A DNA stretch of 26,313 bases from a virus (Duplodnaviria > Heunggongvirae > Uroviricota > Caudoviricetes). Each line of letters starts with the position of its first letter. Position 1 is the first letter of the stretch. A program made the position numbers and the translations under genes. Under the pieces are notes generated by a model. It saw only the letters and a program-made list of their open reading frames with translations. It had not been told where the DNA came from and made no database searches. The DNA is taken from IMG/VR virus record IMGVR_UViG_2687453108_000014; one strand, written 5' to 3'. Below are positions 1,633 through 24,945 of the stretch, one piece after another.

Positions 1633-1736
1633 ACATCATCTAACAATGAATTAGATGCATTTTCCGCTGACGCCTTAGCATATAACTTTTAAATTTTATC
1701 GATATATATTTTGAGATAATTTCCTGTAGCGGATTT

Positions 1737-1757: not shown

Positions 1758-1764
1758 AGGTCAG

Positions 1765-4098: not shown

Positions 4099-4111
4099 TG
4101 TGCGGCCCTCC

Positions 4112-4435: not shown

Positions 4436-4656
4436 CAGGCCACCTCCGCATTCATCAGGTCGTCATGGCAGCGTTGCACCACTCCATCCAGTTGCTCTGT
4501 CATCAGATAAATGAGGGAAACCAGTTGTTCGCATTGGGCACCTGCTGGCTTTTCATAACAGTCCTGCAGGGCTGCCATGCCAGTTACATACTCACCCACA
4601 TTGCGTAAATGTTTCAGCCTTACAACATCGTCGTAGGAAATCTCAAACTGGTTCAT
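4435..4656 (-). CDS. Hypothetical small protein in the P4-like early region
   Basis: 73-aa ORF abutting the neighbouring ORFs in an operon-like arrangement. Confidence 0.4.
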
Positions 4657-5210: not shown

Positions 5211-5467
5211 GCATCACATCCCCGCCCACGGGCGCTGATGCGGTCCGCCATCCATGCGCTGACCTCAGACTGTGCCCAGGCGACATTTTTACCGCCAAGC
5301 GGGATCTGCTTCGGAAACGCATCGCGGCTGATCAGGTCGTAAACGGTCGAACGGGACAACCCGCATAAGTGCATCACCTCAGGCAGGCGTAAAAATCGCT
5401 CATGATGGTTCGATACAGGAAATAATGGCGCAGCAGGAGCTGGCGCAGACACAGAAATATTACGCAT
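5207..5467 (-). CDS. alpA: AlpA/Vis-family prophage transcriptional regulator
   Basis: Segment [53 protein letters not shown] is characteristic of AlpA-family HTH proteins of P4-like elements. Confidence 0.8.
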
Positions 5468-6020
5468 TTATCTACCCTCTTTAATTTCCACAACAGTCCG
5501 GATGAATTTATCCGGGTTCAGGTAGTTCCTTATTATGTGTATATAAACCACCTGCGCACGCATTTTTTATTTAGCGTCACATATTGATTTTATGGAATTT
5601 AAAGCCCGATTAAACCATATAAAATGACATAATAAATACCATGCCTGCGGACTATAAATACAGGAGCATTAATAGGAACTACCATTCACCCAGGGTTTAC
5701 TATCCTATGGGTCATTGCACCTGATAGTGCTAACCCCACCGCCAATACAGCAAGGCAGTACAACTTCTACACGAGGCCTTGCATTGCAGGCCCCAATTTC
5801 CGGGCATATTTTTGAATCGCATCCAACTTATAAACATTGGGCCTGCATAAAAACCTTGATATTAAATAACATCACCTTAAATCGTAAAATATATCCGAAT
5901 GAATCCATAAAGAACCGGACAGATCTAGTTTTATAAAAATCAGTATGAAATGCAACACCATGGCCAGAGGCGAAAATGTTATTCCCCGGCAAAAACATGC
6001 AGTCTATTTATGTGCCTGTT

Positions 6021-6233
6021 GAATACTCCTGAATAAGGGTGAATAGTGGTGAGGAGCAAAAAACAAATAGCTACGAGGAATAAAAAAACCACCCATTATG
6101 AAAAAATACCATAAATAATTTTATTCCCATGTGAACAGTTATGAACAGTCGATGAATACTGCCATGCCAACCCTTCACCTTATAACCTTCTGTATTACCT
6201 ATTTTTTTTACCTAAGTGAATAGTAGTGAATAG
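6021..6233. repeat. Cluster of iteron-like octamers (GGTGAATA / GTGAACAG / AGTGAATA) in the divergent control region
   Basis: At least six copies of TGAAYA-type octamers at 6038-6045, 6130-6137, 6141-6147, 6151-6158, 6215-6222 and 6225-6232; they resemble the reverse complement of the P4 iteron. Confidence 0.4.
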
Positions 6234-6400
6234 TTAAGGTAAGTCTGAAACAGCCTTAGTTAAACGAGGCCTTTTCTGGCTAGCCAAAAGAGGTCCGGGG
6301 CGGTTCAGTCTTTGTCTTGTCGCTCGCACAATGGCGTTCAATGGCAGCTTTGTATGCATCACAGCACAATTGACACCACGACAAACCACTAGGTGCTGAC

Positions 6401-7153
6401 ATGACAATCCCAGAACAGAACAATAACCCGATCGTTGAAATTTCTATCCCTGTTTCGACGCAACAGGCGCTTGAGAAAGTGAATGCCACCAAATCTGCAT
6501 GGCTTGAAGCACGTCGTCAGCAAAAAGCGGCAGCGGATAATATTGCGACAATCCGCCAGCGCCGCGCTGAAATGGAAGCCACGACGAACGCCCTGAATGA
6601 GGAGTGGCGCACGCTATTTCGTGAAAGTCAGGGCGTAGTCTCAAAGGAAATGAAAAAACTGCGCACGGAAATTGCGCTGGGACGAGAAACGCTTGAGGAT
6701 TTTGATGAGCTGCTGGCGGCTCAGGAAAGCGAAAATGCACTTTTGCCGCAGGAGGCTGCGGAATTAGCCGGAAAGTATATCCACGCGCACGACACCCTTG
6801 TGGGTATTCGCGCAAAACAAATCTGGGAAGATTTTATGCAGTCGCATGGAAAAGCACTAATCCAGACACTAAGCCTGCTCAAATCAACAATGGGCAGGGA
6901 AGCCAGCGCAGTTGTCGGTGTGGTGCATTCAGTTAATGACCCGGACACACTGCTGAAAGATTTTATTCATAAACATATCACCAGACCGGCTCTGACTAAC
7001 GATGCGATGCCCGAACAGGACCCCGTGTTTAAACTGGCGGGAGTTGCCCCGGATTATGCGGCCCGTCTGGATTTCAGTAATAAACTCTCTCCAGCAGCTA
7101 TGCATAAAATGAAGGTTCGTCAGGAACGTGCTGAGAAGGAGAAAGCAGTATGA
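6401..7153 (+). CDS. sid: Sid-like capsid size-determination protein
   Basis: 250-aa coiled-coil-rich protein first in the sid-psu-delta block; shares the FMQ-HG-AL motif with the adjacent Psu-like gene. Assignment is from position and recalled similarity. Confidence 0.55.
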   Translation: MTIPEQNNNPIVEISIPVSTQQALEKVNATKSAWLEARRQQKAAADNIATIRQRRAEMEATTNALNEEWRTLFRESQGVVSKEMKKLRTEIALGRETLEDFDELLAAQESENALLPQEAAELAGKYIHAHDTLVGIRAKQIWEDFMQSHGKALIQTLSLLKSTMGREASAVVGVVHSVNDPDTLLKDFIHKHITRPALTNDAMPEQDPVFKLAGVAPDYAARLDFSNKLSPAAMHKMKVRQERAEKEKAV

Positions 7154-7701
7154 TGGCCCGAGTCACTCCAGACCAAGCGCTTATCAGTTTTAGAAATGCC
7201 CGTATTCTGTGGGCTGGACATAGTGAGAGCCGAAAAGCCGTTGAACAACAGATAGAATCACTCCTCACTGCCATGGAAAAACCAGCAGATTATGCTCGAC
7301 AGCTCGAATTACAGCGGGAACATCTGGATGTGCTGAAATGGCAAATTAACTGTGCTGCGCGCGAATGCATTTACTCGCAGCATCAACTGATGGAGGCCTG
7401 CACAGAAGACGCTCTCAGCAATTTTATGCAGGCGAATGGAGCAGCCCTGACATCTGCACTGGCTCCGTTCCTGAAGGGGCGCGGAGGGGTTGACGTTGCG
7501 TCCCGTATATTACGCAATGCTCTGGTTCGCCAGCTGGCAATAACACCGCCTGAAATTGCCGGGGATTATCGTATGATTCTGGATGAATCCGGTGTGATGC
7601 CTGACCCCATGATGGTTCGTGATTGCCAGAGCTCTTACACCCCTGCACAACAACTGCGCTTTCAGCAACGTCTGGATTACATTAACGGCATGCAGGAGTA
7701 A
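7150..7701 (+). CDS. psu: Psu-like polarity suppression protein
   Basis: 183 aa; KWQINCAARECIY and FMQANGAALTSALAPFL resemble what I recall of P4 Psu; start overlaps the sid stop (ATGA). Confidence 0.65.
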   Translation: MMARVTPDQALISFRNARILWAGHSESRKAVEQQIESLLTAMEKPADYARQLELQREHLDVLKWQINCAARECIYSQHQLMEACTEDALSNFMQANGAALTSALAPFLKGRGGVDVASRILRNALVRQLAITPPEIAGDYRMILDESGVMPDPMMVRDCQSSYTPAQQLRFQQRLDYINGMQE

Positions 7702-7706
7702 TATTA

Positions 7707-7979
7707 ATGGCACTTAAATGTCCCGAATGCGGTACGACGGCACACGCCAGAACCTCCGCCTATGAAGCACCATCGGTTAAACGCTCATGGTATCAGTGCC
7801 AGAATCTTGAATGTTCCTACACATTTACCGCACTGGAAAGTGTGGATACGATAATCATGAAGCCCCGGCGCAATGAACAGGAATCAGAGAAAGCACAAAT
7901 GCCGGAAAAACAACAGCAAACTCTCAATCGCTATGGCTCCGCGTCAAAGCTGTCAAGCCGTCAGCAAATTCCTGTCTGA
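7707..7979 (+). CDS. ogr: Ogr/Delta-family zinc-finger late transcription activator
   Basis: CPECG...AHARTS...YQCQNLECSYTF matches the Ogr/Delta zinc-finger pattern of P2/P4-type elements. Confidence 0.85.
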   Translation: MALKCPECGTTAHARTSAYEAPSVKRSWYQCQNLECSYTFTALESVDTIIMKPRRNEQESEKAQMPEKQQQTLNRYGSASKLSSRQQIPV

Positions 7980-7998
7980 TTAGCAAAAAAAGCCCACG

Positions 7999-8027
7999 TA
8001 ATCCCGGTCCAGTACTGGGATTTTTTA
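7999..8027 (+). terminator. Rho-independent terminator after ogr/delta
   Basis: Stem AATCCCGG / CTGGGATT around a 7-nt loop, followed by TTTTTT. Confidence 0.6.
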
Positions 8028-8388
8028 CGCCTTTTCCCTGGCTGGCCTGAGAGCGCATGAGTGCATGTCTATAGCGCATGAAAACGCATGATTCTCATGC
8101 ACCATTTTTGACGCGAAAGCCCTTGTGTGGTGGCTTCTGAGACGATTTGCGGAATGCATGAAAACCAGTCTGTTAAGCGAAGCGAGCAGGCGTGGGGGGC
8201 TGCGCGCGCTAAGGGGTTAGATTATAAAATATCAAACGCCGGTGAGATCCATTATTGTGGAACCACCCGAAGGAAGTGTAGAGGCGAAAGTACCCAAAAT
8301 AATTTTGCAAATTATTTAGAAATGAACTGAGCGCTCGAAACGAAATATAATTTCGAGCACCCCAATTAGCAGTTATATTTTTAATGTA

Positions 8389-10207
8389 TTAAACAGGATA
8401 AAAACCAGAGCTTCCATTCTTATTTAAGTTATGGATTTTATTTGCATCATTAATTTTTATTTGGAACGTCGGACCTTTATTCTCAAGAATTACAATCTGG
8501 AAATTATAGTCCCTTTTGATTAATGCGTGATAAAATGAATCACTGAGACTGACGCTATTAACATCCGATAGAGAACCCCCTCTATCTTTATCAAAGTGCG
8601 TCACTAATGGACTATCAAGCACAACAAATCCAATGAATGGATTCCCTTTTCTTGATAAAAATTCCGCAAAGCAAATGGTAAATATAGCATGCATTACTGC
8701 ACGGGTACCTTTACCAAACATTCCTCGGCGTTTCCCATTGATATTAAAGTCATATGTATCTTCGTCAAATCGCACTTTGTTATCTTTAGAATTTTCAAAA
8801 TTTATATCATTCAAAAAGTCTTGCATCGCTATTTCTATATCATACAAATCAGCTACTGTTAAGGAGTCAAAGTCCTCGGCGGAGTATTTAAGTTCGTCAA
8901 CATCATCTTCTTTATCTTGTAATGAAGATAGAATGCTATGTTTTGTGTGATCCATTAAAAGATTGTCTTTATATTCATAAAGTGATTCAAGAGATGAATG
9001 TATTGTTTTATATTTTTATCTTCTAACGTCTTAAAATCACTTTTTTCTGATTGATAAATTTCATTAACATCATTTTTTCTTAACATAATTAATTCATGTT
9101 CGCGAACATTAGATCCGATTGATTCAATTAATCCTTTCAGCTGGCTTTTGATTTTCAATTTTTCTGCATTACACGACAAAAAACAATCATCATATGATAT
9201 TTCATTTTCTTTTTTTGCGGTGTATTACAGAACTCACAATAAATATCTGCAAAATTATTTAAATAGAAATTCGCCTGTGATACAACATCTATTCTTTGTA
9301 GATCTATAAAGTATTGGTCTTTAAGAAGACTAAATCTTTCAATGAGTAATGATAAGTATTTTTCCCTGTCACTGATTGAATATAATTCATCACTTAACTC
9401 TTTTAATAATTGCTTCTTATCATCAAGTGCATCAACAATACCTTTCAATATATCTTTCGATGATTCAATATCTTGCTCTACTTTCTCAAGTTCTCTTGAA
9501 ACAATGACTTGATCATATTCAGGATAAATTAATTGCGCTTTCAATTCCTCATAAATATTTGCAATTTGATTTTTTTAAAAATATCTTGCTTTTTTATTTG
9601 GTTTTTCTGCTAAGGAGTTAGTATCATCTCTCTGAGTTAAAAGGAATTTAAATTCAGACTTTCTTTTTGTCTCCTCGCTAGGAATATCAGAAAGAATTAA
9701 CGACTTCTCAGTTAACACTCTTAATTCATCAATACAAAAAAATTCAAAAACATTATTAAGATTAAATTTATGAAGAGTATTACTTAAGTTTGTTCTTACT
9801 TTAGCCTCTTTGAAATTCAACCTACCATAAAAGTATGATGAAAAACTCTTTTTAGACGAAGCACTTTTGGAAAAAACCATCAACAGATTAGCTTCACTAA
9901 CATTTTCAATACTCGAATCATATAATCTGTAATGGGCGCTATCCTGAAGAGACCTCTCAATTGTCATTACCCTACCTTGAAAATTAAATTCCAGATAGGC
10001 TAAATCATAACCTTGAGCATGATCGATATCTTTATTTTTTAGTTTTTCACTCCCTAATAAATATCGAATCAAATAATATATGTATGTTTTTCCAGAGTCA
10101 GAACCACCATATAAAATAGTCAATTTAGAACCAAATTCAATTATAGCATCTAATTTATTGAATCCGGTTACCTTTATTTTTCTGAACGTAAAAAAATTGT
10201 CATTCAT
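8389..10207 (-). pseudogene. SMC/ABC-like ATPase (component 3), split into four ORF fragments by one in-frame TAA and at least one frameshift
   Basis: N-terminal fragment has an SMC-type Walker A (FRKIKVTGFNKLDAIIEFGSKLTILYGGSDSGKT); the middle is coiled-coil-like; the last fragment has a Walker-B-like FVVLDSP. Fragments 9578-10207 and 9155-9574 are in the same frame separated by TAA at 9575-9577. Fragments 2 and 3 use TTG starts. Confidence 0.5.
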
Positions 10208-10658
10208 AATTAAATTCCATATCATATTTGCCAATTTTATTTTTTATAATTGATTGCAACTGCTCATCAGGAATATCACTATATAACTTAACCACCAAAT
10301 TTATATTATGCTCCATCTGCGCAACATATTCATTATGTAGAGAATTTGTAAATGCATATGTTTTTTCAGAAGCTTTATATACAAAACCACGATGTGTATA
10401 AATTTTTGAGGCTAGTTCATAGCCTTGCAACAAAGCCAATGATTCTAAAACAATCTCTCGTTTTAGGGCTAACTGAGCATCTCTACGGGGTATTGGAGGA
10501 TGAAGACTAATCTCTTCAGGTAAAAAATCCTTAAGATTTACTAAAATAAAATCAAAACAAATAAGCCGTTCAAGGCTTAATGAAGAAGGATAAATAGCGA
10601 CGAGCACTTTCGCCATTCGACATGCCACTTCTAAACTTGAATTATAAATTCTAACCAT
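10200..10658 (-). CDS. Small protein (component 2), about 152 aa from the internal ATG
   Basis: ATG at 10656-10658 overlaps the upstream stop (TAATG) and its own stop overlaps the ATPase start (ATGAATGA); no recognisable motif. Confidence 0.5.
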   Translation of the reverse strand: MVRIYNSSLEVACRMAKVLVAIYPSSLSLERLICFDFILVNLKDFLPEEISLHPPIPRRDAQLALKREIVLESLALLQGYELASKIYTHRGFVYKASEKTYAFTNSLHNEYVAQMEHNINLVVKLYSDIPDEQLQSIIKNKIGKYDMEFNYE

Positions 10659-11275
10659 TATCTCACCGTCCAAATTACTTCACCATCATTAACCAAATGA
10701 TGGCATATTCCTTTTTTATCATTTGCTTCACATATTTTTGATAGTACTGAATGTGCAATTGGTGTCAGAACAGCCTGCTTCAAGACTGCATTACACCTAA
10801 TAAATGCATAATTATGGTCTTCATAAAAGACGGGTTCAATTGAAGATGAAATGTAACATTTCAATGCTTTGAATACATCATCTTTAAATACTTCGCGGAC
10901 AAAAACCTCAAGCGAAGATGCAAAATAAAAATCATTTCTACTATTATTAAAGTGTCGTCTGTATGGATCATCAAGCTCTAAGAAAGAACTATAAGTTTTA
11001 TTTCCATGCTCTGAATAGGCTTGAAGCAGTGCATTAACATATACAGACTCTTTTTTTGAATTGTATGTTGGAATTTCATTTGGAGGGATTCTCACGACAT
11101 ACAGCTCGTTAAAGTACTTAAAATAAAGGTGTGTATTTGCAATATCATTTAAAATCAATGATAAGGGTAGAGAGTAAAAAATACTAAAATCAAAATCCTC
11201 AATATATTTTTTTATTTCATCATCTAATGGAATATCAATCTTTTTAGTTATTTTTTTGAAATTGCTGAATCCCAT
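10658..11275 (-). CDS. Hypothetical protein, probably the C-terminal part of the upstream nuclease-like gene
   Basis: Overlaps the upstream ORF by 28 nt in another frame exactly at an A7 run (11251-11257); its own RBS is weak; a 1-nt change in the run would fuse the two into about 340 aa. Confidence 0.45.
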   Translation of the reverse strand: MGFSNFKKITKKIDIPLDDEIKKYIEDFDFSIFYSLPLSLILNDIANTHLYFKYFNELYVVRIPPNEIPTYNSKKESVYVNALLQAYSEHGNKTYSSFLELDDPYRRHFNNSRNDFYFASSLEVFVREVFKDDVFKALKCYISSSIEPVFYEDHNYAFIRCNAVLKQAVLTPIAHSVLSKICEANDKKGICHHLVNDGEVIWTVR

Positions 11276-11664
11276 GAATCAAGGACTGCTTTTTTAAGCT
11301 CGTTTTTATTTTTCAATAAATTAGAAAATGTAGTAGATAAATCATAGGGTGCCACAAAAAAGTACTTCTGAGGGATGGGATAATCACCATTCAGAGTAAA
11401 ATAGATAAGTTTTCCAAACTCAACTACAACATCAGAGAACCCTAAACTTTTTTTGTACAGTTTGCATTGATAATTATCCCAAGAATAACCTTCTACGTTA
11501 GGATCCGATTTATATCCAACAACGTCTCTACCTTTATCTCCAGCTCCTCCCAAACGTTCGCTCCACGGGTAATCATCTGATTTACAGACAATAAGCCAAT
11601 CATGGACAAATACCTCCCATTGTTCATCATCCCATGTCAATATTTCCGAAAGTGGTTGAGACAC
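11248..11664 (-). CDS. PD-(D/E)xK (Mrr/Cap4-like) nuclease-domain protein (component 1, N-terminal part)
   Basis: ERLGGAGDKGRDVVGY ... NYQCKLYKK resembles the G-x-GD-x-G-x-D ... QxK catalytic core of Mrr-type nucleases; GTG start 7 nt after AAGGAG, directly downstream of the integrase stop. Confidence 0.5.
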   Translation of the reverse strand: MSQPLSEILTWDDEQWEVFVHDWLIVCKSDDYPWSERLGGAGDKGRDVVGYKSDPNVEGYSWDNYQCKLYKKSLGFSDVVVEFGKLIYFTLNGDYPIPQKYFFVAPYDLSTTFSNLLKNKNELKKAVLDSWDSAISKK

Positions 11665-11667
11665 AAA

Positions 11668-12849
11668 TTAACTCCTTTTTAGTCTTTCAAATATCAAATT
11701 ACTGTACCAGTCCATCATAGACTTCCTTCCACTAAAATATTGAGCATGGTTATAAGTCCCCCTAATAGAATTTTTATCTACATGAGCCAACTGGATTTCA
11801 ATCCAAGCACTCTCAAAACCTTGCTCATGCAGGATTGTAGAAAGGGTATGACGAAAACCATGTCCAGTGACTTTTCCTCCATACCCAATACGCTTAATGG
11901 CTTGATTTATACTCGCTTCGCTCATTGGCCTATTCGGATCGTTCCGCCCTGGAAAAACATAACGATAGTTCCCTGTCATGATCTTGAGTTCATTGAGTAA
12001 ATCTACCGCTTGAGATGATAAGGGCACAAGATGTGGCCTACGCATTTTCATCCTTTCAGCAGGAATTTCCCAAATAGCGTTATCCAGATCAAATTCTTGC
12101 CATAATGCCGCGCGTAATTCGATGGTTCTCACACCCGTAATCATCAGTAATTTCGTGGCTATCTGGACAAGCTTACTCCCGGAGTAACCCTCTAAGGCAC
12201 GTAGAAAATCAGGTATCTCATCAGCTTTTAGGAATGGGAAATGATTGGATTGGTGTACTTCGAGAGCGCTGGAGAGATCAGCCGCAGGATTGTACTCCGC
12301 CCTACCCGTTGCAATTGCGGGGCGGTTCACTTCGGAGCAACGCTGCCGCACTTTGCGCATTTTCTCCAACGCACCACGTTTCTCAATTTTACGCAGAACG
12401 TTCAGCAGCTCTAGCGGTTTAATCTCTCCCACAGGCCTTGTTCCGACATAAGGAAAAATGTCGTTCTTAAACGCTTCCATGATGTCTGATGCATATCCCG
12501 CCGACCATTTAGCAGATTTAAGTTGATGCCACTCTCTGGCTATCTTTTCGAAGGCGTTCTCTGACTCTGTTTGCATAGCTAGCTTTTGCTCTTTTCGAAC
12601 CTCACTAGGGTTCTTTCCTTCTGCCACAAGTTTTCGAGCTTCATCACGACGGGAACGAGCATCGGCAAGGGTGATCGTTGGGTAAACACCAAGCGAGATC
12701 ATTTTGGGTTTGCCGGCATAGCGATAGCGGAACCGCCAACTCTTGCTTCCATTAGGTTCTATAAGTAATGACAACCCTAGCCCATCTCCAAATGTATAGG
12801 CTTTAGCTTCAGGCTTAGCGCGGCGAATCTGCATATCGTTTAAAGGCAT
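11668..12849 (-). CDS. int: P4-type tyrosine integrase
   Basis: P4-type N-terminal arm-binding region (MPLNDMQIRRAKPEAKAYTFGDGLGLSL...) and catalytic HxxR (GHGFRHTL) and Tyr (RGTYNHAQY) motifs; lies next to the partial thrW repeat. Confidence 0.9.
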   Translation of the reverse strand: MPLNDMQIRRAKPEAKAYTFGDGLGLSLLIEPNGSKSWRFRYRYAGKPKMISLGVYPTITLADARSRRDEARKLVAEGKNPSEVRKEQKLAMQTESENAFEKIAREWHQLKSAKWSAGYASDIMEAFKNDIFPYVGTRPVGEIKPLELLNVLRKIEKRGALEKMRKVRQRCSEVNRPAIATGRAEYNPAADLSSALEVHQSNHFPFLKADEIPDFLRALEGYSGSKLVQIATKLLMITGVRTIELRAALWQEFDLDNAIWEIPAERMKMRRPHLVPLSSQAVDLLNELKIMTGNYRYVFPGRNDPNRPMSEASINQAIKRIGYGGKVTGHGFRHTLSTILHEQGFESAWIEIQLAHVDKNSIRGTYNHAQYFSGRKSMMDWYSNLIFERLKRS

Positions 12850-12904
12850 GTGTATAGGAATCCAGACCGAACAGGAACATATACACAATCCTATACACAT
12901 TCAG

Positions 12905-13010
12905 TACCGGATTCTACTGGATGGTTACGGACTACTATGGACTTAAAAGAATAAAAAATGTTATAAATCAGAGATTTTATGGACTAATACGGACGTTTGA
13001 GGAAGTTGAG
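12905..13010. promoter_or_regulatory. Candidate integrase arm-type binding repeats
   Basis: Repeated TACGGAC / TATGGACTA motifs between the int start and the att core. Confidence 0.3.
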
Positions 13011-13012
13011 AT

Positions 13013-13058
13013 GGTGCCGATAATAGGAGTCGAACCTACGACCTTCGCATTACGAATT
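13013..13058 (-). repeat. 46-bp partial thrW 3' end, the att junction between the two elements
   Basis: Exact 46-bp identity to 24870-24915 (3' portion of thrW); diverges at 13059. Confidence 0.85.
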
Positions 13059-13338
13059 ATAAGAATCCGCTTCTAATTCAAAGCATTACCCCATCAACAC
13101 TGCGCTCACACGTCCCACCACATCAAAACATGTAAAGCCTTGCAAGCCATTGCGAGGCCTTATGTGTCTCAGTTTTGTCCCACCTTGTATTACGACTTGC
13201 ATAGCCAATGAAGATAAACGTGACGACAAACGGCGCAGCAGTCTTCTTTTCTTTCACGACTTCTCCAGCATGCATACCTTTCTGCCATGACTGAAGTGAA
13301 TGCCTGTTATGAGCAAGGATTGGCCCAGATGAATCGCC

Positions 13339-13504
13339 CTGGACTGTTGCGATCGTGAAGCCATAGACTGGGCCGCAAGCACGGGAGGTTACGATAAAGC
13401 GACAGTGCAGGATGTCATGTTAGGAGCGATAGAAAAACGCTTTGGCGATAAAGTACCGGAACAGTCCATCCAGTGGCTGACAGATAACGGTTCAGCGTAT
13501 AGAG
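13339..13504 (+). pseudogene. IS2-family (IS3 superfamily) transposase remnant, upstream part, interrupted by the IS629-like element
   Basis: Translates to ...[51 protein letters not shown], resembling an InsD-type C-terminal region; the frame continues after the IS. Confidence 0.55.
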
Positions 13505-13558
13505 TGAACCGCCCCGGAAATCCTGGAGACTAAACTCCCTGAGAAAGAGGTAAACAGG

Positions 13559-13885
13559 ATGACTAAAAATACTCGTTTTTCCCCCGAAGTCCGTCAGCGG
13601 GCGATTCGTATGGTTCTGGAAAGTCAGGATGAATATGACTCACAGTGGGCGGCAATTTGTTCCATTGCCCCAAAGATTGGCTGTACGCCGGAGACTCTGC
13701 GTGTCTGGGTTCGCCAGCATGAGCGGGATACCGGGGGCGGTGATGGTGGGCTCACCAGCGCTGAACGTCAGCGTCTGAAAGAGCTGGAACGTGAAAATCG
13801 TGAACTGCGCCGCAGTAACGATATCCTTCGCCAGGCTTCCGCTTATTTTGCGAAGGCGGAGTTCGACCGCCTCTGGAAAAAATGA
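13559..13885 (+). CDS. IS629-like OrfA (HTH)
   Basis: [23 protein letters not shown]... with leucine-zipper-like C-terminus, typical of IS3-family OrfA. Confidence 0.85.
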
Positions 13886-14772
13886 TGCCACTGCTGGATA
13901 AGCTGCGTGAGCAGTACGGGGTCGGACCGGTATGCAGCGAACTGCATATTGCCCCGTCAACGTATTACCATTGTCAGCAACAGCGACATCATCCGGATAA
14001 ACGCAGTGCCCGTGCGCAGCACGACGACTGGCTGAAGAGAGAGATACAGCGCGTATACGATGAAAATCATCAGGTGTACGGTGTGCGTAAAGTCTGGCGT
14101 CAGTTGTTACGGGAAGGAATCAGGGTGGCCAGATGTACAGTGGCACGTCTCATGGCGGTTATGGGACTTGCCGGTGTTCTCCGGGGTAAAAAGGTCCGTA
14201 CGACCATCAGCCGGAAAGCCGTTGCCGCAGGCGACCGCGTAAACCGTCAGTTCGTGGCAGAACGACCTGACCAGCTGTGGGTGGCTGATTTTACTTACGT
14301 CAGCACATGGCAGGGCTTCGTCTATGTGGCGTTTATCATTGATGTGTTTGCCGGATACATCGTGGGGTGGCGGGTCTCATCGTCTATGGAAACGACATTC
14401 GTGCTGGATGCGCTGGAGCAGGCGTTGTGGGCCCGTCGTCCGTCTGGCACCATCCATCACAGCGATAAAGGCTCTCAGTATGTGTCACTGGCCTATACGG
14501 AGCGACTAAAAGAAGCCGGATTACTGGCATCAACAGGGAGTACAGGCGACTCGTATGACAACGCGATGGCTGAGAGCATCAATGGTCTTTACAAAGCGGA
14601 GGTAATACACCGTAAGAGCTGGAAAAACCGTGCAGAAGTGGAACTGGCCACACTAACGTGGGTGGACTGGTATAACAATCGACGATTGCTGGGAAGGCTG
14701 GGCCATACTCCTCCGGCAGAAGCAGAAAAAGCTTATTATGCTTCCATCGGAAACGATGATCTGGCAGCCTGA
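13882..14772 (+). CDS. IS629-like OrfB (DDE transposase)
   Basis: DDE-type catalytic region (...WVADFTYV..., ...HHSDKGSQY..., ...DNAMAES...); overlaps orfA as expected for programmed -1 frameshifting. Confidence 0.85.
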
Positions 14773-14817
14773 GTTCACAGATAAAACACTCTCCAGGAAA
14801 CCCGGGGCGGTTCAGAG

Positions 14818-15083
14818 CGCATGAAACACGGCAGTTCGCCAGAGAGTTGAATCTGGAGCCCTGCACAACGGCAATCAGCAGTCCTCAGAGTAATGGAATT
14901 GCAGAAAGGTTCGTGAAAACGATGAAGGAAGACTACATCGCGTTCATGCCGAAACCGAATGTAAGAACGGCATTGCATAATCTTGCAGTGGCGATCGAAC
15001 ATTACAATGAAAACCATCCGCACAGTGCGTTGGGTTATCGCTCTCCGCGAGAATATCGACGTCAGCGGGTAACGTTAACTTAA
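14818..15083 (+). pseudogene. IS2-family transposase remnant, downstream part (C-terminus)
   Basis: ...[36 protein letters not shown]...[14 protein letters not shown]... continues the frame of 13339-13504 once the IS and one GAG copy are removed. Confidence 0.55.
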
Positions 15084-15124
15084 GATACCCCCCCTGTCTG
15101 GAAATAAGGGGGCAAGAACAATGA

Positions 15125-15868
15125 TCAGATTCCCTGGTGAGTAAGAATTTTACTTTCTGAACTCCTCTGAGAGTATTGACTTGGAGAAACACCAAAATAA
15201 CGTCTAAATACATAAGTAAAGTATGAGACACTGGCATAACCACAGACCTTAGCTACTTTACTAATAGGATAACAACGAGTGCTGAGTAAATATTCAGCCA
15301 TTTGCATCCTCTCATCAAGTATGATCTTACTGAATGATACCCCCTCTTCTTTCAATTTCCTCTTTAGTAAACTTTCGCTGAGATATAATCTTGATGATAT
15401 ATCCTTAAGACGCCATGGTGCAGATAAATCCGTATGAATAATCGTTTTAACTTTAGCCCCTGTGCTTTTCAAACATCCAAACAGAAATACTCCAAATTGT
15501 TTTTCAGAAGAAAATGCAGAGAGACATGTAAAAGCAATAGACTCATCAAAAATTTCTATGTATTCAGCACAGTGATTAGCCCAACTAATTAATCCTTTAA
15601 TTAAACTGAAGTCAGCAAAGTTTATTTTTAAATAAGATGGATATTCCCTACAATCAGAAATATCCCTTAAGTTATTAGCTTTCAAATAGCGACTAATAAA
15701 CTCAGCGCCAAAATCCGCCACTATCACTCTTTCAGGATATGTCAGGAAAAAATCTCTAGAGCTAGAGTCGACAAGTACAGATGAACCTCTCTCCAGAAAC
15801 ACACTCTCTTTTCCGAAATAAACATCAAAGGACTCCAAAATCAATATAACTGAACATGTAGTTGCCAT
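15125..15868 (-). CDS. AraC/XylS-family transcriptional regulator, AppY-like
   Basis: C-terminal double HTH (WRLKDISSRLYLSESLLKRKLKEEGVSFSKIILDERMQMAEYLL...VCGYASVSYFTYVFRRYFGVSPSQY); overall layout resembles prophage-borne AppY-type regulators; gene is AT-rich. Confidence 0.8.
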   Translation of the reverse strand: MATTCSVILILESFDVYFGKESVFLERGSSVLVDSSSRDFFLTYPERVIVADFGAEFISRYLKANNLRDISDCREYPSYLKINFADFSLIKGLISWANHCAEYIEIFDESIAFTCLSAFSSEKQFGVFLFGCLKSTGAKVKTIIHTDLSAPWRLKDISSRLYLSESLLKRKLKEEGVSFSKIILDERMQMAEYLLSTRCYPISKVAKVCGYASVSYFTYVFRRYFGVSPSQYSQRSSESKILTHQGI

Positions 15869-16450
15869 ATCATCCCCCCAATTTAACTGAAACCAGGATG
15901 AAGTATATGTATATAAAGTTCACTTTGCCAAACTTCAGTATAAAAAACCACTAAAAATAGGGTGTGATAAAAAATACCGTAACAATAAAGCAAAGGATTA
16001 TAAATTCCGTTACAGTTACAAATGATACTCAAGAAACAATTCCTTAGGAAAAACTTATTTACAGCCAATAAGTAAGACACTTATATGATATCAAGTTTTC
16101 ATAAAACATAACTAGGCTAAATAGCTGCGCCTAATACCGCTACACTTTTGCCAGCCCATGTTTGCCTCCGGGTATTGACCCCTTCTCTACGCAACTTCAG
16201 TTCCCACCACCAACTTTGCGGCAGCTTTGTAGGATCAATGTCTAAAAGAATAATGGTGACCGATAAGAAAACGACTGAATAACTGCAGATTTTCGCTCAA
16301 AACCTTCCTGTCAGATCCATAGCGAATCAAGTGCTGAATGTCACAGTATCGAACAGAAAACAGTGACGATCTAACCCTTCAAGAATATTCTACGATTGTT
16401 CTGTTTAGGAAAAGCAAGACGGGAAGTCGGGAGATAAGTCATTGATAAAG

Positions 16451-16512
16451 TGGCGGAGAGAGGGGGATTTGAACCCCCGGTAGAGTTGCCCCTACTCCGG
16501 TTTTCGAGACCG
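16451..16512 (-). other. 62-bp 3' fragment of a tRNA-Ser(CGA) gene (serU-like), att-type remnant
   Basis: Reverse complement reads CGGTCTCGAAAACCGGAGTAGGGGCAACTCTACCGGGGGTTCAAATCCCCCTCTCTCCGCCA: anticodon arm with CGA, long variable arm, T-arm and acceptor 3' end; the 5' half is absent. Confidence 0.7.
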
Positions 16513-16595
16513 ACCCGATCATCAAACGAAACATAAAATTAGCTCACATTATGAGGAAAGGTATCTTTTTGCGCTATGTAAATTCAAAGGGTTAG

Positions 16596-17465
<870 letters not shown>

Positions 17466-17522
17466 ATCTTCAAGTGGTAAGCATAAACCGCAGCACGATC
17501 TTGCATACGACGTGCTACGGTT

Positions 17523-18077
17523 TCATTTATCTCCGGCCGGAAACTTCTTATACAGTGTCGATACACCAACATCATAGATGATCGCTACCTTCTGGCGAGG
17601 AATTCCTGCTGCAATTAATCGTCCGGCCTGCGCCCATTGTTCTGGTGTAAGTTTGGGACGACGTCCACCAATTCGTCCCTGTGCGCGAGCAGCTTCCAGT
17701 CCAGCTTTTGTTCGTTCAACAATCAGTTCTCGTTCCATTTCAGCCAGGGCCCCCATCACATGAAAGAAAAAGCGCCCCATTGGGGTACTGGTATCAATAG
17801 CATCCGTCAGGCTGCGAAAATTAACGCCACGTTCGCGCAACTCCTCAACCAGAATGACCAGATGCCGCATACTGCGCCCCAGCCGATCCAGTTTCCAGAC
17901 AACCAGAGTGTCACCTGCCGATAATGTCCTGAGCAGTTTTTTCAGTCCCGGCCTTTCGGACTTTGTACCGCTTATCTTGTCTTCAAAAATCAGCTCGCAT
18001 CCTGCACAGTTCAGCGCATTACGTTGTAGATCTGTGTTCTGGTCATTTGTTGACACACGTACATAGCCAATAAGCAT
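17523..18077 (-). CDS. pin: Pin/Gin/Hin-family serine DNA invertase
   Basis: MLIGYVRVSTNDQNTDLQ... with catalytic Ser and C-terminal HTH; lies next to a hix/gix-like site and an invertible segment. Confidence 0.9.
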   Translation of the reverse strand: MLIGYVRVSTNDQNTDLQRNALNCAGCELIFEDKISGTKSERPGLKKLLRTLSAGDTLVVWKLDRLGRSMRHLVILVEELRERGVNFRSLTDAIDTSTPMGRFFFHVMGALAEMERELIVERTKAGLEAARAQGRIGGRRPKLTPEQWAQAGRLIAAGIPRQKVAIIYDVGVSTLYKKFPAGDK

Positions 18078-18141
18078 GGTAGATCTCCCTGACAAAAGCA
18101 GGAATGATGCCATTTGCTCGTTATTTCTGCATTTTCATAAA

Positions 18142-18167
18142 CGTTGGTTTGGGAGAAGGTGCTCCAG
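18142..18167. repeat. Invertase crossover site 1 (hix/gix-like, 26 bp)
   Basis: Reverse complement TTCTCCCAAACCAACGTTTATGAAAA resembles hix/gix sites and matches 19971-19996 in inverted orientation over TTCTCCCAAACCAA-GTTT. Confidence 0.7.
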
Positions 18168-18388
18168 CTATTGGCGTTCCGTTTCTGGCCGTCCGCTGCA
18201 ATGCCAATACTGTAATCGACAGCTGGTCCTGTATGGTGTTTTTGAAGTTCAACGGCGCGAAATTCTCTGCCACTGATTATCCTGTGCTGGCGAAAGTGTT
18301 TCCTTCGCTGGTATTACCTGAAGCCGCGGTGATTTCATTCGTATCTGGGATGACGGGCGAGGTGCAGACGGTGGTCGCGAATTATTAA
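18168..18388 (+). other. Promoterless alternative tail-fibre C-terminal segment (Sv')
   Basis: Frame runs on from the crossover site: ...GAPAIGVPFLAVRCNANTV...KFNGAKFSATDYPVLAKVFPSLVLPEA..., a tail-fibre-like motif. Confidence 0.45.
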
Positions 18389-18594
18389 GCTGGCAGGCAG
18401 CTACAACTTTCTCAGTTTGCCGGGAATATAGGCGAAGGTGCGGGACACGCAATTAACTTTCATGATGGCATCGCCGGAAATCAGCCAGGATTTTCACGAT
18501 TTAATTTCACCAGTAACTCTGTGGGTGATGGTGTGAATTTTGTTGCAGTCAGACCGCGAAATATTGCATTTAACTTTCTGGTGAGGGCTAAATA

Positions 18595-19185
18595 ATGAAC
18601 CTGTTTTTGATGAAAATGGGCTGGCTACAGTGCCGGGCGATATGCGTTGTTTTTATTATGATGCTGAAACATCTGAGTATACGGCTGGTCTGATGAATAT
18701 ATTAATACTGGCGTAAGTATGCCCGCCTGTTCCACTGGTATTGACCCTGGCGAAAACATTCCGGGAAGAGTGGCAGTATTTACAGGTAAGGGATGGAGCC
18801 ATGAAGAAGACCATCGCAATGAGACTGTTTACTCAATCGAAAATGGCGCAGCTGTTACAGTGGATTATATCGGTGCCATCAAAGACGGTTATGTCACGAT
18901 TTCACCGTTAACGCCATACGATAAATGGGATGGTGAGAAATGGGTGACAGACACTGAGGCACAACACAGTGCCGCAGTAGACGCGGCAGAAGCACAGCGC
19001 CAATCACTGATTGATGCAGCAATGGCTTCCATTAGTCTGATTCAGCTGAAGTTACAGGCCGGACGGAAACTGACTCAGGCAGAACAACCCGACTTAACGC
19101 CGTGCTGGATTACATTGACGCGGTGACGGCAACAGATACCAGCACCGCGCCGGATGTCATCTGGCCTGAACTGCCGGAGGCGTAG
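18595..19185 (+). pseudogene. Tail fibre assembly gene (tfa'), frameshifted
   Basis: Tfa-like middle region (TPYDKWDGEKWVTDTEAQ...) in one frame, conserved C-terminus (LNAVLDYIDAVTATDTSTAPDVIWPELPEA) in another; the N-terminus after ATG 18595 is in a third. Confidence 0.55.
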
Positions 19186-19586
19186 GCCATTCAATATCTG
19201 GCGCACCGGAAGTATCGACCAGCTCCAGTGCGTCCAGATAATCCAGCCACAATTATATTGCGTCAGTTCGTCACCTTTCAGACGACCAATAGCCGCTTTA
19301 CCGGGCCATTGCTTACTGTTCATGTATTCGTTGGCCTGGTTAATTAGTAGCTGTCTTTCTGATTCAGTAATTTCAATAAGCTCTTCATGCGTGGGTGGAG
19401 GAATATCTGCCACGCAGGCAGCCCATCATCTCCGGCAATACGGATTTTCCTTGTGGCGGTTCAGCCATAAACTCACTGATAATATTTTGATTTACTTCCT
19501 TAGCGTCTGATAAATCCCATCCCTCTGATTTATATTTATCAATCATATCCACAGGGAAAAAGCATTATGCCTTGCGCTATAAACAT
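19157..19586 (-). pseudogene. Tail fibre assembly gene (tfa), multiply frameshifted
   Basis: Starts MDEYVYSARHNAF then stops; DIPPPTHEELIEITESERQLL... and the conserved C-terminus WLDYLDALELVDTSGAPDIEWPTPPAVQAR are each in different frames; 3' end overlaps tfa' antisense. Confidence 0.55.
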
Positions 19587-19616
19587 ATTCGTCCATATAA
19601 ATCACCCTGAATAAAA

Positions 19617-20339
19617 TTACTCACCAACAGCCCACCAACTGTAATTCATCGATACCGTGTCGCTGGTTGATGACGTTCTGTAAGCAGAATTAAAGCCGGT
19701 TAACGTTGGGCCTTCTGCAGTCATCACGAACCCTCGCCCAGCGCCTAAAGGCGCACCGCCATCACCAGAATGAGTAAGCATGGCGCAGTCCGCTTTTTGG
19801 GGAAAGGGATGCTGAATGTAATTCTCATTGTTGCGTCGATAATGTCGGCGTAACCGCACCACGACCATATTGCAGGATTTTCCCGTTGGTAATTTCATCC
19901 ATCCATTACCACTGGCAAAGAGGCCATGTCCGGTATCTGATTTTCCCCTGTCCCACATCCCGTTTGCCGCTTCTCCCAAACCAAGGTTTTGAAGAGCCGT
20001 TTTCACCGTGCCGTCCGATTTGATATCGCCAAACGGATTCTTGCGGCTCAGGTATTCAACAGCAAACCCCGATCCCAGCAATTCAACAAAACCGGGCAGA
20101 TCACCATTATCAAGCACATCCCGTTGCGTTTTATCACTTACAAACTGGGCCAGAGCTGCAGCAATAAAGCTGGCCTGCCGAATAACCTTATTGACTTGCG
20201 CACTGGATGCTTTCCCTGCTGTAAATCCGGATATAAGCGCAGGCAACGCTTCCCATTCCTCCTGCGACATAACATTGGCATTTCGATCAGTTGCAAACGC
20301 TTTAAAGTCATTTTTCGCCATCAGAGTAATACTCCCCAT
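19617..20339 (-). CDS. Side tail fibre protein (e14 Stf-like); C-terminal third lies inside the invertible segment
   Basis: ORF just upstream of tfa containing crossover site 2 (19971-19996) in frame. Confidence 0.6.
19971..19996. repeat. Invertase crossover site 2 (hix/gix-like, 26 bp) inside stf
   Basis: TTCTCCCAAACCAAGGTTTTGAAGAG, inverted relative to site 1. Confidence 0.7.
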
Positions 20340-20632
20340 GCCCCTACATCAAAACCACTGATGAATTCGTTATCCATATCAAAACCAAAAAATTTAGAGC
20401 CTTCCGATGGAGTTTCCACCGAAGGTGTTTCAATGCCCCCCGCCCATACCCCGGCGGCTTTTACTGTTAGATACCCCTGTTTAATTGCCGCAATTAACTC
20501 ACGCGATACATCTGAAATATCAGTATCAGGAAAGACCCAGACCGATATCGTCATGTCCTGGTTATCGATGTTGGCGATCCGACGCATCTGCTCACGGTCA
20601 AAGTTAACCATCTGTGCGGCGATGTTTTTCAT
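20321..20632 (-). pseudogene. Deletion fusion: lambda P codons 1-21 joined to the 3' end of a tail/baseplate gene
   Basis: First 21 residues (MKNIAAQMVNFDREQMRRIAN) match lambda P; downstream sequence is unrelated and ends overlapping the stf start, as the last gene before a tail fibre would. Confidence 0.65.
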
Positions 20633-21528
20633 AAATCCACCCCGTAAATCCAGTCAGTGTTTGTCAGGTCGAGTTTTGGTTTGCTGGCTGTCACGCCTGC
20701 CTGTTGCTTGTTACGGTTGATTTCGAGCTGGGTCCACTTGTCGCGGAGTTTGGCCGGACTCAGCACGTTACCGGACCAGAAGTTGTCCTGGCAGGCCCAG
20801 CGGAAAAGCACACACATATCGCGGTGGTTACGTCCGTCACGTTCACGCATCAGGCGGATATCGTTAGCCCACCCAGCAAAATTCGGTTTTCTGGCTGATG
20901 GCGCGATGGTCTTCACCATGTCAAACATCCACTCTGCGGCGGTCAGGTCTTCTGCTGTTCCCCACTTGCTGCCGCTCTGAATTGCAGCATCCGGTTTAAC
21001 CACAGAAAGATCGTTTTCTGGCTGGTCAGAGGATTCGCCAGAATTCTCGGACGAATAATCTTTTCTTTTTTCTTTTGTAATAGTGTCTTTTGTGTCCCCC
21101 TGTTTTGAGGGATAGCAATCCCCCAATTTGAGGGATGTTTTATCCCTCGTTTTAGGGGATTTTCCCTCGTTTTGAGGGATACACCATTCTGAGATGTTTT
21201 TATTTGGTCCAAACATGCCGCCTTGCTGCTTGATAATATTCATTCTGACGAGTTCTAACTTGGCTTCATTGCACCGTTTGACAGGTAACTTTGTAATCTC
21301 GCTAAGTTGAGAATCGGTGATTCTGTCCATTGGTTTATTCCACCCATAGGTTTTACGCAGAATGGCAAGCAGCACTTTAAACTGTCGCTTGGTCAGATCT
21401 GCGCCCGAATAAGCCTCAAGCAGCATATTTGATAGTCTGGCGTAACCATCATCGAGATCTGCCACATTACGCTCCTGTCCGGCAAAGTTACCTCTGCCGA
21501 AGTTGAGTATTTTTGCTGTATTTGTCAT
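20629..21528 (-). CDS. O: Lambda-type replication initiator O
   Basis: 299 aa, matches what I recall of lambda O; contains the ori iterons. Confidence 0.93.
   Translation of the reverse strand: MTNTAKILNFGRGNFAGQERNVADLDDGYARLSNMLLEAYSGADLTKRQFKVLLAILRKTYGWNKPMDRITDSQLSEITKLPVKRCNEAKLELVRMNIIKQQGGMFGPNKNISEWCIPQNEGKSPKTRDKTSLKLGDCYPSKQGDTKDTITKEKRKDYSSENSGESSDQPENDLSVVKPDAAIQSGSKWGTAEDLTAAEWMFDMVKTIAPSARKPNFAGWANDIRLMRERDGRNHRDMCVLFRWACQDNFWSGNVLSPAKLRDKWTQLEINRNKQQAGVTASKPKLDLTNTDWIYGVDL
21060..21185. repeat. ori-lambda: four ~19-bp iterons plus adjacent AT-rich region inside O
   Basis: Repeated ...CCCTC(A/G)AAA(C/T)(G/A)AGGGA... units at about 21096-21183, with a T-rich tract at 21060-21095. 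Confidence 0.8.
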
Positions 21529-21560
21529 AATGACTCCTGTTGATAGATCCAGTAATGACC

Positions 21561-21854
21561 TCAGAACTCCATCTGGATTTGTTCAGAACGCTCGGTTGCC
21601 GCCGGGCGTTTTTTATTGGTGAGAATCGCAGCAACTTGTCGCGCCAATCGAGCCATGTCGTCGTCAACGACCCCCCATTCAAGAACAGCAAGCAGCATTG
21701 AGAACTTTGGAATCCAGTCTCTCTTCCACCTGCTGATCTGCGACTTATCAACTCCCACAGCTTCCGCTGTCTTCTCAGTTCCAAGCATTGCGATTTTGTT
21801 AAGCAACGCACTCTCGATTCGTAGAGCCTCGTTGCGTTTGTTTGCACGAACCAT
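21561..21854 (-). CDS. cII: Lambda cII transcriptional activator
   Basis: 97 aa from MVRANKRNEALRIESALLNKIAMLGTEKTAEAVGVDKSQISRWKRDWIPKF...; the ORF track's longer N-terminal extension is discarded. Confidence 0.93.
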   Translation of the reverse strand: MVRANKRNEALRIESALLNKIAMLGTEKTAEAVGVDKSQISRWKRDWIPKFSMLLAVLEWGVVDDDMARLARQVAAILTNKKRPAATERSEQIQMEF

Positions 21855-21972
21855 ATGTAAGTATTTCCTTAGATAACAATTGATTGAATGTATGCAAATA
21901 AATGCATACACCATAGGTGTGGTTTAATTGGATGCCCTTTTTCAGGGCTGGAATGTGTAAGAGCGGGGTTAT

Positions 21973-22182
<210 letters not shown>

Positions 22183-22195
22183 TTAGTACATGCAA

Positions 22196-22266
22196 CCATT
22201 ATCACCGCCAGAGGTAAAGCAGTCAACACGCGCGGTGTTAGATATTTATCCCTTGCGGTGATAGAT
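22196..22266. promoter_or_regulatory. OR1-OR2-OR3 with divergent PR and PRM promoters
   Basis: OR1 TATCACCGCCAGAGGTA (22200-22216), OR2 CAACACGCGCGGTGTTA (22224-22240), OR3 TATCCCTTGCGGTGATA (22247-22263); OR2 differs from my recalled lambda sequence by one central base. Confidence 0.85.
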
Positions 22267-22270
22267 TTAA

Positions 22271-22987
<717 letters not shown>

Positions 22988-23876: not shown

Positions 23877-23990
23877 ATGGATGCACAAACACGCCGCCGC
23901 GAACGTCGCGCAGAGAAACAGGCTCAATGGAAAGCAGATCGGATTCTGGCTTCAACATTTCGCAGGAATGCAACTAAGAGACATTACTGA
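23877..23990 (+). pseudogene. N: Truncated antiterminator N (codons 1-20) running out of frame into integrase sequence
   Basis: [20 protein letters not shown] matches lambda N; from about 23938 the sequence is integrase-derived and the N frame ends after 17 unrelated codons. Confidence 0.85.
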
Positions 23991-24855
23991 ATCAAAAATT
24001 TATTCAGCAATGCAGAAAATGACGAACCGGCGTCATGAGGAAAACTGGAAACTCAGGGCAGAAGCATGCAGAAAAAAAGGGAAACCTGTTCCAGAATACA
24101 CGCCAAAACCAGCGTCCGTTGCAACGAAGGCTACGCATCTTTCATTTATAAAGGCCCTGCTAAGAGCCGCAGAGCGTGAATGGAAAATGCTCGATAAGGC
24201 ACCAATTATTAAAGTGCCTCAACCAAAGAATAAACGGATCCGCTGGCTGGAGCCCCATGAAGCACAAAGGCTGATTGATGAATGTCCGGAGCCATTAAAG
24301 TCTGTTGTTGAATTTGCACTGGCAACAGGCTTAAGACGCTCGAACATCATCAACCTTGAATGGCAACAAATAGATATGCAGCGCCGGGTGGCATGGATAA
24401 ACCCGGAAGAGAGTAAATCAAACCGCGCAATTGGCGTTGCGCTGAATGATACTGCATGTCGCGTATTGAAAAAACAAATCGGTAATCATCACCGTTGGGT
24501 ATTTGTGTACAAGGAAAGCTGTACCAAACCAGACGGAACGAAAGCGCCAACAGTAAGGAAGATGCGGTATGACGCAAACACAGCCTGGAAAGCGGCGCTG
24601 AGACGGGCTGGTATTGATGATTTCAGATTTCACGACTTGAGACACACCTGGGCAAGTTGGCTGGTTCAAGCCGGAGTCCCGTTGTCAGTGTTACAGGAAA
24701 TGGGAGGCTGGGAGTCTATCGAAATGGTTCGTCGATATGCTCACCTTGCACCTAATCACCTTACCGAACACGCACGGCAAATAGACTCGATCCTGAACCC
24801 ATCGGTCCCAAATTTGTCCCAGTCAAAAAATAAGGAAGGTACTAATGATGTGTAA
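23939..24855 (+). pseudogene. int: P22-type tyrosine integrase lacking about 80 N-terminal residues
   Basis: ...[39 protein letters not shown]... through [39 protein letters not shown]; homology begins abruptly at the N junction with no native start or arm-binding domain; the gene ends 14 bp from thrW. Confidence 0.8.
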
Positions 24856-24869
24856 CTTATTGATTTAAA

Positions 24870-24945
24870 TGGTGCCGATAATAGGAGTCGAACCTACGAC
24901 CTTCGCATTACGAATGCGCTGCTCTACCAACTGAGCTATATCGGC
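24870..24945 (-). tRNA. thrW: tRNA-Thr (anticodon CGU), thrW
   Basis: Reverse complement is GCCGATATAGCTCAGTTGGTAGAGCAGCGCATTCGTAATGCGAAGGTCGTAGGTTCGACTCCTATTATCGGCACCA, a full cloverleaf with CCA. Confidence 0.95.

Follow-up and report, generated by a model that had tools for sequence, protein, structure and literature searches.

A displaced serU attachment junction within the thrW prophage element of Escherichia coli O157:H7

How does the 3′ part of one tRNA gene, serU, come to lie inside a prophage element that is bounded by copies of another, thrW? The stretch of DNA in which it occurs (hereafter the window; 26,313 nucleotides from IMG/VR record IMGVR_UViG_2687453108_000014) corresponds over its whole length, in reverse complement, to the thrW region of E. 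coli O157 Sakai, annotated there as Sp1 (lambda-like) followed by Sp2 (P4-like), and its positions 14500-18500 match E. coli O157:H7 strain JEONG-1266 at 100% identity. From the letters of the window, an initial annotation had read positions 16451-16512 as the 3′ part of serU in the form of an attachment-site junction, and had proposed that the adjoining tail-fibre, pin, and GIY-YIG block derives from a prophage once integrated at serU and was joined to a lambda-type core by recombination. With one amendment concerning the nature of that core, this proposal was sustained. Positions 16173-16512 very probably represent a dead attR junction, which arrived when a thrW prophage acquired the terminal part of a related phage integrated at serU.

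The serU fragment and its two flanks

The reverse complement of positions 16451-16512 (the fragment lies on the minus strand), CGGTCTCGAAAACCGGAGTAGGGGCAACTCTACCGGGGGTTCAAATCCCCCTCTCTCCGCCA, aligns without a mismatch (62/62) to nucleotides 29-90 of the 90-nt serU gene of K-12, a span that begins at the second base of the 5′ arm of the anticodon stem, takes in the CGA anticodon, the long variable arm, and the T arm, and ends with CCA. The CGA anticodon identifies the fragment as serU and not another tRNA-Ser gene and, in line with the initial annotation, as tRNA-Ser and not tRNA-Thr. Distances of 8.4 kb to the intact thrW and of 3.4 kb to the distal thrW repeat place it between both thrW attachment copies and, again as first described, several kb inside the element. 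The match is unique in the window even when up to 3 mismatches are allowed, and 0 of 100 shuffles matched the serU segment, none being expected by chance. The possibility that these 62 bp merely form part of a conserved phage sequence unrelated to tRNA-Ser, envisaged beforehand, proved not to be the case.

A complete tRNA-Ser(CGA) cloverleaf is absent from the locus, which holds only nucleotides 29-90 of 90 and lacks the 5′ third of the gene. Neither ARAGORN nor Rfam (in both gathering and E-value modes) called a tRNA at 16451-16512, and the sole tRNA that ARAGORN detected in the window is thrW, at 24870-24945. The fragment is not a functional tRNA gene; it yields no tRNA today and is most likely without any activity. 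An Rfam match to “Plastid-psbl-rps4 3′UTR RNA” at 16454-16505 on the plus strand (E=2e-7; 40.9 bits against a gathering cutoff of 68) was rejected as a real feature, and probably stems from an overlap of that family with the antisense of plastid tRNA-Ser.

The abrupt end of the tRNA match was likewise borne out by alignment: identity stops at 16512/16513 in the O157 copy, and continues for another 4 nt (66 nt in total) in the copies of MB15 and E1739, an extension across which the O157 copy is substituted. A serU segment of 62-63 nt constitutes the att core of phages ev099, mEp332, PhiR70_1, Chris1, KpF5, and SerU-LTIIb. The fragment, in which the initial annotation had recognized the form of an attachment-site junction, is the crossover region together with the B′ part of an attR junction, with native serU 3′ DNA to the left and the end of a serU phage to the right.

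The left-hand side, positions 16173-16450, consists of 278 bp of the yodB-serU spacer, i.e. native chromosomal DNA found directly 3′ of serU. The comparison of the left flank with the serU neighbourhood, which had been set beforehand, covered 5426 complete E. coli genomes, and 5405 of them contain this segment, each with a single match. At the K-12 locus, the spacer match occupies 3001-3278 and is followed by serU at 3279-3368, intact and unoccupied. Because this spacer adjoins an empty and intact serU in K-12, and is found in nearly all of the genomes, it represents host DNA and not a phage arm; and because the left flank is chromosomal (B′), the junction is of the attR type and not a phage-borne attP.

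The captured spacer is not the allele that O157 carries at its own serU. It differs by 3 positions from the native copy of M7424 and by 2 from the copy on the E1739 island, vs 9-11 of 340 positions from the native O157, K-12, and MB15 copies, and a 7-SNP haplotype is common to the window, the native locus of M7424, and the island copy of E1739, a non-O157 strain. The spacer was thus imported, and the haplotype rules out a duplication of the serU flank of O157 itself. As judged from these alleles, the pattern indicates a single origin of the block in another lineage with an M7424-like spacer, with the block entering O157 already within the thrW island.

The native serU locus of O157:H7, whose inspection had also been proposed, is occupied by Sp14/CP-933U (with espJ and tccP), which possesses its own attR next to a full yodB-serU spacer. 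This agrees with the reported integration of Sp14 at serU (PMC8190617). No reciprocal junction was seen at this locus.

To the left, the spacer ends on an insertion-sequence stub. Positions 16118-16172 correspond to the outer ~55 bp of an IS630-family element and display a 93% match to the transposase-3′ end, or terminus, of such an element on plasmid pJNE23-001_1. The body of the element would extend rightward, and is cut off at 16173, the first position homologous to native serU spacers. The 16172/16173 boundary is an illegitimate join and not a transposition end. Further left follow 250 bp of AT-rich DNA, an AraC-family gene, an ISEc48-like remnant, an SfII arm, and the thrW core. The AraC-IS630′-spacer junction was detected in 536 genomes, including non-O157 strains without Sp2.

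The right-hand side (16513-17465, plus strand) comprises the phage (P) arm of attR and a gene for a LEM-3-like GIY-YIG protein (CDS 16692-17465; Pfam PF22945, E=3.3e-14), in a block that was found in 851 genomes and at several attachment sites. Using a chimeric query composed of the K-12 spacer beyond the island breakpoint and positions 16173-17000 of the window, we identified five genomes (MB15, RMDEC332, Q5, GF130, and PM4) in which the native flank, the serU fragment, and the GIY-YIG gene occur together at native serU. In MB15, the block ends a complete SfII-like prophage of ~39 kb, with an intact serU and an integrase on one side and the serU fragment and yodB on the other; the order is serU, cargo, integrase, early genes, HK97-type head, contractile tail, baseplate, tail fibre, pin, GIY-YIG, serU fragment, yodB. 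In Q5, the order is zinT, spacer, serU fragment, and GIY-YIG, followed by tail and baseplate genes. The presence of the block at the native serU junction of five genomes attributes the GIY-YIG/pin/tail-fibre end to serU-integrating phages, as the initial annotation had surmised.

When the GIY-YIG module was searched against sequenced phages by megablast, only the 62-63-nt core was matched, and no record of the phage collection carries the 278-bp spacer, matches being again limited to that core. The combination of an M7424-type spacer with an O157-type P arm and GIY-YIG gene at native serU is absent from the five native carriers and from M7424. The GIY-YIG alleles themselves are mosaic: over the first 588 bp the window and AR_0369 are 99.5% identical, a value that falls to 97% when 985 bp are compared, and E1739 matches the window at 99.3% in the spacer but at only 95.4% in the GIY-YIG allele. 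Recombination thus continued after the original join, which blurs its history. In A29 and E89 (ssrA islands) and in AR_0369, the GIY-YIG arm keeps ~19 nt of serU, corresponding to the anticodon stem-loop, and is followed by unrelated DNA. The breaks in these three genomes, at 5940-6010 of the extracted loci, fall exactly at the expected integrase crossover, which suggests secondary-site events or swapping of attachment modules.

Next to the GIY-YIG gene lies a pin-type serine DNA invertase gene (17523-18077, minus strand; Resolvase and HTH_7 domains, annotated pinE), at the same position as in the MB15 serU prophage. It is followed by an invertible tail-fibre/tail-fibre-assembly segment (18134-19993) flanked by inverted repeats of ~20-25 bp, AAACGTTGGTTTGGGAGAAG and AAACCTTGGTTTGGGAGAAG. 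In Sakai, this segment runs in the other direction; its ends overlap at 18134-18158 and 19970-19993. The genes inside it are frameshifted; its opposite orientation indicates that the invertase nevertheless flipped it after the strains diverged. The constant 5′ part of the tail-fibre gene (19965-20321, minus strand) is truncated and fused at 20321 to the remnant of a phage P gene. Positions 19970-20048 are 96% identical to the tail-fibre gene of MB15 and positions 19915-20048 are 88% identical to SfII, and the serU/SfII-type similarity fades at ~20048, within the tail-fibre gene.

The thrW frame and its later insertions

The outer frame of Sp1 belongs to a different integration system. An intact thrW, tRNA-Thr(CGU), is recognized by both ARAGORN and Rfam at 24870-24945 (minus strand), adjoining proA, and an SfII/SfV-type integrase gene (23881-24855, plus strand) ends 14 nt from it, on the attL side of Sp1. 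The integrase is N-terminally truncated and annotated as a pseudogene. Its residues 19-324 are 99.7% identical to the SfII/SfIV integrase, 99.3% to that of SfI, and 98% to that of SfV, and at the nucleotide level positions 23937-24915 are 98.8% identical to the SfII int gene and attP core; the integrase of the MB15 serU phage is unrelated, with 31% identity over 58 amino acids. The distal junction of Sp1 (13012-13182, minus strand) comprises a 46-nt copy of the thrW 3′ end (13012-13057) and, from the gtrA side of SfII attP, ~125 bp of the arm. This copy forms a direct repeat with 24870-24915, and about 13011-13182 are 97.1% identical to SfII 24710-24881. SfII-type phages integrate at thrW, as is also visible from the 46-nt thrW segment in the attP region of SfII. 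The frame of Sp1 is an SfII/SfV-type thrW prophage.

Both a serU-type attL (i.e. an intact serU) and a serU-type integrase are absent from the element, whose other end is formed by thrW and the SfII-type integrase. Lacking its cognate attL and integrase, the serU junction is a displaced relic and not a working one. Similarity to SfII is limited to the attachment arms, int, and 134 bp of the tail fibre, and both the gtr and the structural genes are gone. The interval 20321-22987 is annotated as a lambda-like early block (P′ remnants, O, cII, cro, and cI), and BLAST detected no nucleotide similarity between it and either SfII or the MB15 serU phage. It is a third component, besides the SfII-type frame and the serU-phage end, and the P′/tail-fibre fusion at 20321 could be either the crossover itself or a later deletion. 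The proposed joining of the serU block to a lambda-type core therefore needs amending: an end acquired by recombination is indeed present, but the frame that received it is of the SfII/SfV type and not simply lambda-type.

Between the serU-derived block and the thrW attR lies a gene for an AraC-family regulator (15125-15868, minus strand; HTH_AraC and HTH_18 domains). This region was detected in 645 genomes, in a thrW island in every context examined, and a search for the AraC/IS630 region at the native serU locus found it only in thrW islands. PatE is an AraC-type regulator encoded by z0321 on OI-8 (PMC10877973), and from its position the gene at 15125-15868 is probably patE. The patE product has been described as an activator of acid resistance and a repressor of LEE genes. 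Next to this gene, an IS3-family (ISEc48-like) remnant (13336-15083, plus strand) survives as two pieces, 13336-13503 and 14814-15083, split by a copy of IS1203 (13505-14813) in which Rfam identifies an ALIL frameshift pseudoknot at 13840-13956. IS1203 is absent at this position from Sakai, and hence provides a strain-level marker.

The remainder of the window, positions 127-13028 (minus strand), is the P4-like satellite prophage Sp2, identified by its P4-type integrase domains and by the annotation of Sakai. A 16-17-bp thrW core is duplicated at its ends (127-142 and 13012-13028), and in E1739, AR_0369, and AMA1167 positions 1-142 of the window are joined directly to 13011 onward. This Sp2-less arrangement identifies Sp2 as a later insertion into the distal thrW core of Sp1. 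On the chromosomal side of the distal thrW attachment site, positions 59-142 hold a relic of the 3′ end of a further SfII-like integrase gene, with 87% identity to the E1739 copy. The thrW core that follows this relic has a one-base deletion, and it is into this core that Sp2 inserted; together, the second integrase relic and the insertion of Sp2 imply that the thrW site was used at least three times.

Within Sp2, an ABC-three-component system and an AAA ATPase are annotated at 9575-11664 (minus strand), directly after the integrase, a position known to hold anti-phage cargo in P4-like satellites; the ATPase region differs from the pseudogene annotation of Sakai. Rfam matches to C4 antisense RNA and isrK (4902-4989 and 5058-5135, minus strand) mark a P4-like immunity region, and both RNAs are expected in P4-type satellites. 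The thrW island of E1739 contains in addition an inverted, unrecombined SfII-type arm-core-int′ copy (29744-30121 of the locus), which is attP-like and adjoins an Avs2 defence gene and a second pin gene, so that this island is a pile-up of several phage fragments.

Proposed origin of the composite and competing routes

The comparisons above establish what the fragment, its two flanks, and the thrW frame are, and that the spacer allele is foreign; from them we infer the order and mechanism of the joining events. In a different E. coli lineage, an SfII-like myovirus would have become a serU prophage. Its right-end module, comprising tail fibre, pin, and GIY-YIG, would then have moved, along with attR and 278 bp of host flank, into an SfII/SfV-type thrW prophage, where the donor DNA replaced the corresponding end of the resident. 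On the side of the phage genes, the most likely route would be homologous recombination between genes common to both prophages; on the other side, an illegitimate join would have linked the serU spacer to the inside of an IS630-family element. The MB15 serU prophage and SfII are 95-97.6% identical over ~25 kb of structural and early genes, with unrelated integrases, and such near-identity combined with different integration modules and end cargo makes serU and thrW prophages an ideal substrate for an exchange of ends. Sp1 would later have decayed through a deletion from P to the tail fibre, the loss of gtr, IS insertions, and the insertion of the P4-like Sp2 into the distal thrW core. The composite would then have spread, by descent as well as horizontal exchange, to ~10% of E. 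coli genomes.

Several other routes to the same arrangement were weighed. The least credible takes the fragment for the attP core of a serU phage, borne within a mosaic phage genome and flanked on either side by phage and not host DNA (P-O-P′). Many phage genomes do carry exactly such a 62-63-nt serU core, but the 278 bp to its left are chromosomal in virtually every E. coli genome, including K-12 with its unoccupied site, and this reading was rejected as highly improbable. A tentative alternative, less probable than not, departs from the proposed end exchange in mechanism alone and resembles specialised transduction. A serU prophage would have excised aberrantly, through a crossover between the spacer and an IS630 copy near the integrase end, and the resulting att-less circle, bearing attR, the 278 bp, and perhaps the AraC cargo, would have inserted by homology, Campbell-fashion, into an SfII-type thrW prophage, deletions following. 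Host DNA contiguous with an attachment junction inside phage DNA is the classic signature of aberrant excision, and the order thrW-int...tail fibre-pin-GIY-YIG-serU fragment-spacer-IS630′-AraC...X arm-thrW fragment is what the insertion of a circle by a single crossover would leave. This mechanism fits the gene order as well as the proposed route does, and the second pin, the integrase pieces, and the SfII-type arm-core-int′ copy kept by the E1739 island, which are the tandem leftovers to be expected, hint in its favour. However, in the contexts examined, IS630 and AraC were seen in thrW islands only, and phage records match the core alone and not the spacer.

An exchange within a single chromosome appears unlikely. 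Here, SfII-like prophages at thrW and serU of one cell would have recombined and inverted the chromosome between them, bringing the serU fragment, the spacer, and yodB beside the thrW prophage; a further rearrangement, between the spacer and IS630, would then have restored the order and left the 278 bp behind. The two tRNA genes do lie on opposite strands, the prophages are >95% identical over ~25 kb, and the first inversion alone should already yield the order thrW-int...GIY-YIG-serU fragment-spacer. Two large rearrangements are needed, however, of which the second is illegitimate, while homologous re-inversion would be far more frequent and leave no spacer; no reciprocal junction was seen where O157 carries its native serU; and the spacer is foreign to O157, so that the event could at best have occurred in another lineage. 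While possible, this double inversion is the less economical route. Slightly more doubtful still is the reading that the relic is both the fossil of a specialised-transduction-like capture, in about a tenth of E. coli genomes, and a still usable attR-type secondary site at which serU integrases (e.g. the Sp14 enzyme) could bring about tandem integration at thrW or rearrangement between thrW and serU. The crossover region in the anticodon stem-loop and the whole B′ side are intact, the P arms joined to unrelated DNA beside the anticodon loop in the ssrA islands and AR_0369 resemble an integrase exchange, and there is a precedent in the attR of the resident prophage Rac, which served as an integration site for Sp10 in K-12 (PMC2669165). 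Against this, no element inserted at the relic was found among the genomes, the P-arm side of the core is substituted in O157, and Sp1 neither excised nor circularised in Sakai (PMC2669165). If this reading were nonetheless true, the relic could seed tandem thrW integration, or integrase-driven megabase rearrangements between thrW and serU, in O157:H7.

Significance and comparison with known systems

Prophage mosaicism and relics of attachment sites are well known, particularly in O157, and the present relic is a clear but ordinary case, although the example itself is previously undescribed as far as found. The literature searched contains no description of it, referring to Sp1 only as a severely degraded lambdoid remnant, and it is not marked in the RefSeq and Sakai annotations. 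The view of prophage evolution is unchanged, and the value of the relic lies in annotation, in lineage markers, and in its being a clean example. As a scar it is precise and datable, and the pathogen genome that bears it is among the best studied. Sp1/CP-933H is not a single decayed lambdoid phage. It contains at least three parts, namely an SfII-type thrW frame, a lambda-like early block, and a serU-phage end with 278 bp of foreign chromosome. The scar adjoins the probable patE, a regulator of acid resistance and LEE genes, and thus bears on the origin of that gene. More broadly, it illustrates how near-identical phages with different integrases swap ends between tRNA loci.

The closest counterparts of the relic are the attR junctions of serU prophages (Sp14/CP-933U, the MB15 type, mEp332, ev099, and SerU-LTIIb), which include a 61-66-nt serU 3′ segment starting in the anticodon stem and the same 3′-side host flank. 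In MB15, Q5, and three other genomes, the phage side also consists of the GIY-YIG/pin/tail-fibre end. Unlike these junctions, the relic sits within a thrW element, and of its host flank only 278 bp remain, ending in a fusion to an IS630-family stub. With SfII, SfIV, SfI, and SfV, Sp1 shares an integrase at 98-99.7% identity, the 46-nt attP core, and both arms, and the compound Sp1-Sp2 of Sakai has the P4-like Sp2 in tandem, as in the window. Unlike the Sf phages, Sp1 is devoid of gtr/oac cargo and structural genes, and its interior is made up of the lambda-like early block, the serU-phage end with its attachment junction, the AraC gene, and IS debris.

Two classical systems offer more distant parallels. 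In K-12, the e14 element carries pin, an invertible tail-fibre segment, and a nuclease gene next to attR and a duplicated end of icd. It shares with the relic the architecture of this end, i.e. tail fibre, invertible segment, pin, nuclease-type cargo, and an attR with a duplicated 3′ gene fragment, but differs in its target (icd vs serU), in its cargo (McrA vs a LEM-3-like GIY-YIG protein), and in that the junction of the relic has been displaced from the target locus. In the gal and bio specialised transducing genomes of lambda, host DNA is captured by aberrant excision. Like the relic, these genomes hold host DNA beside an attachment site within phage DNA, bounded by an illegitimate join; the relic differs in retaining only 278 bp and in being joined to an IS630-family stub.
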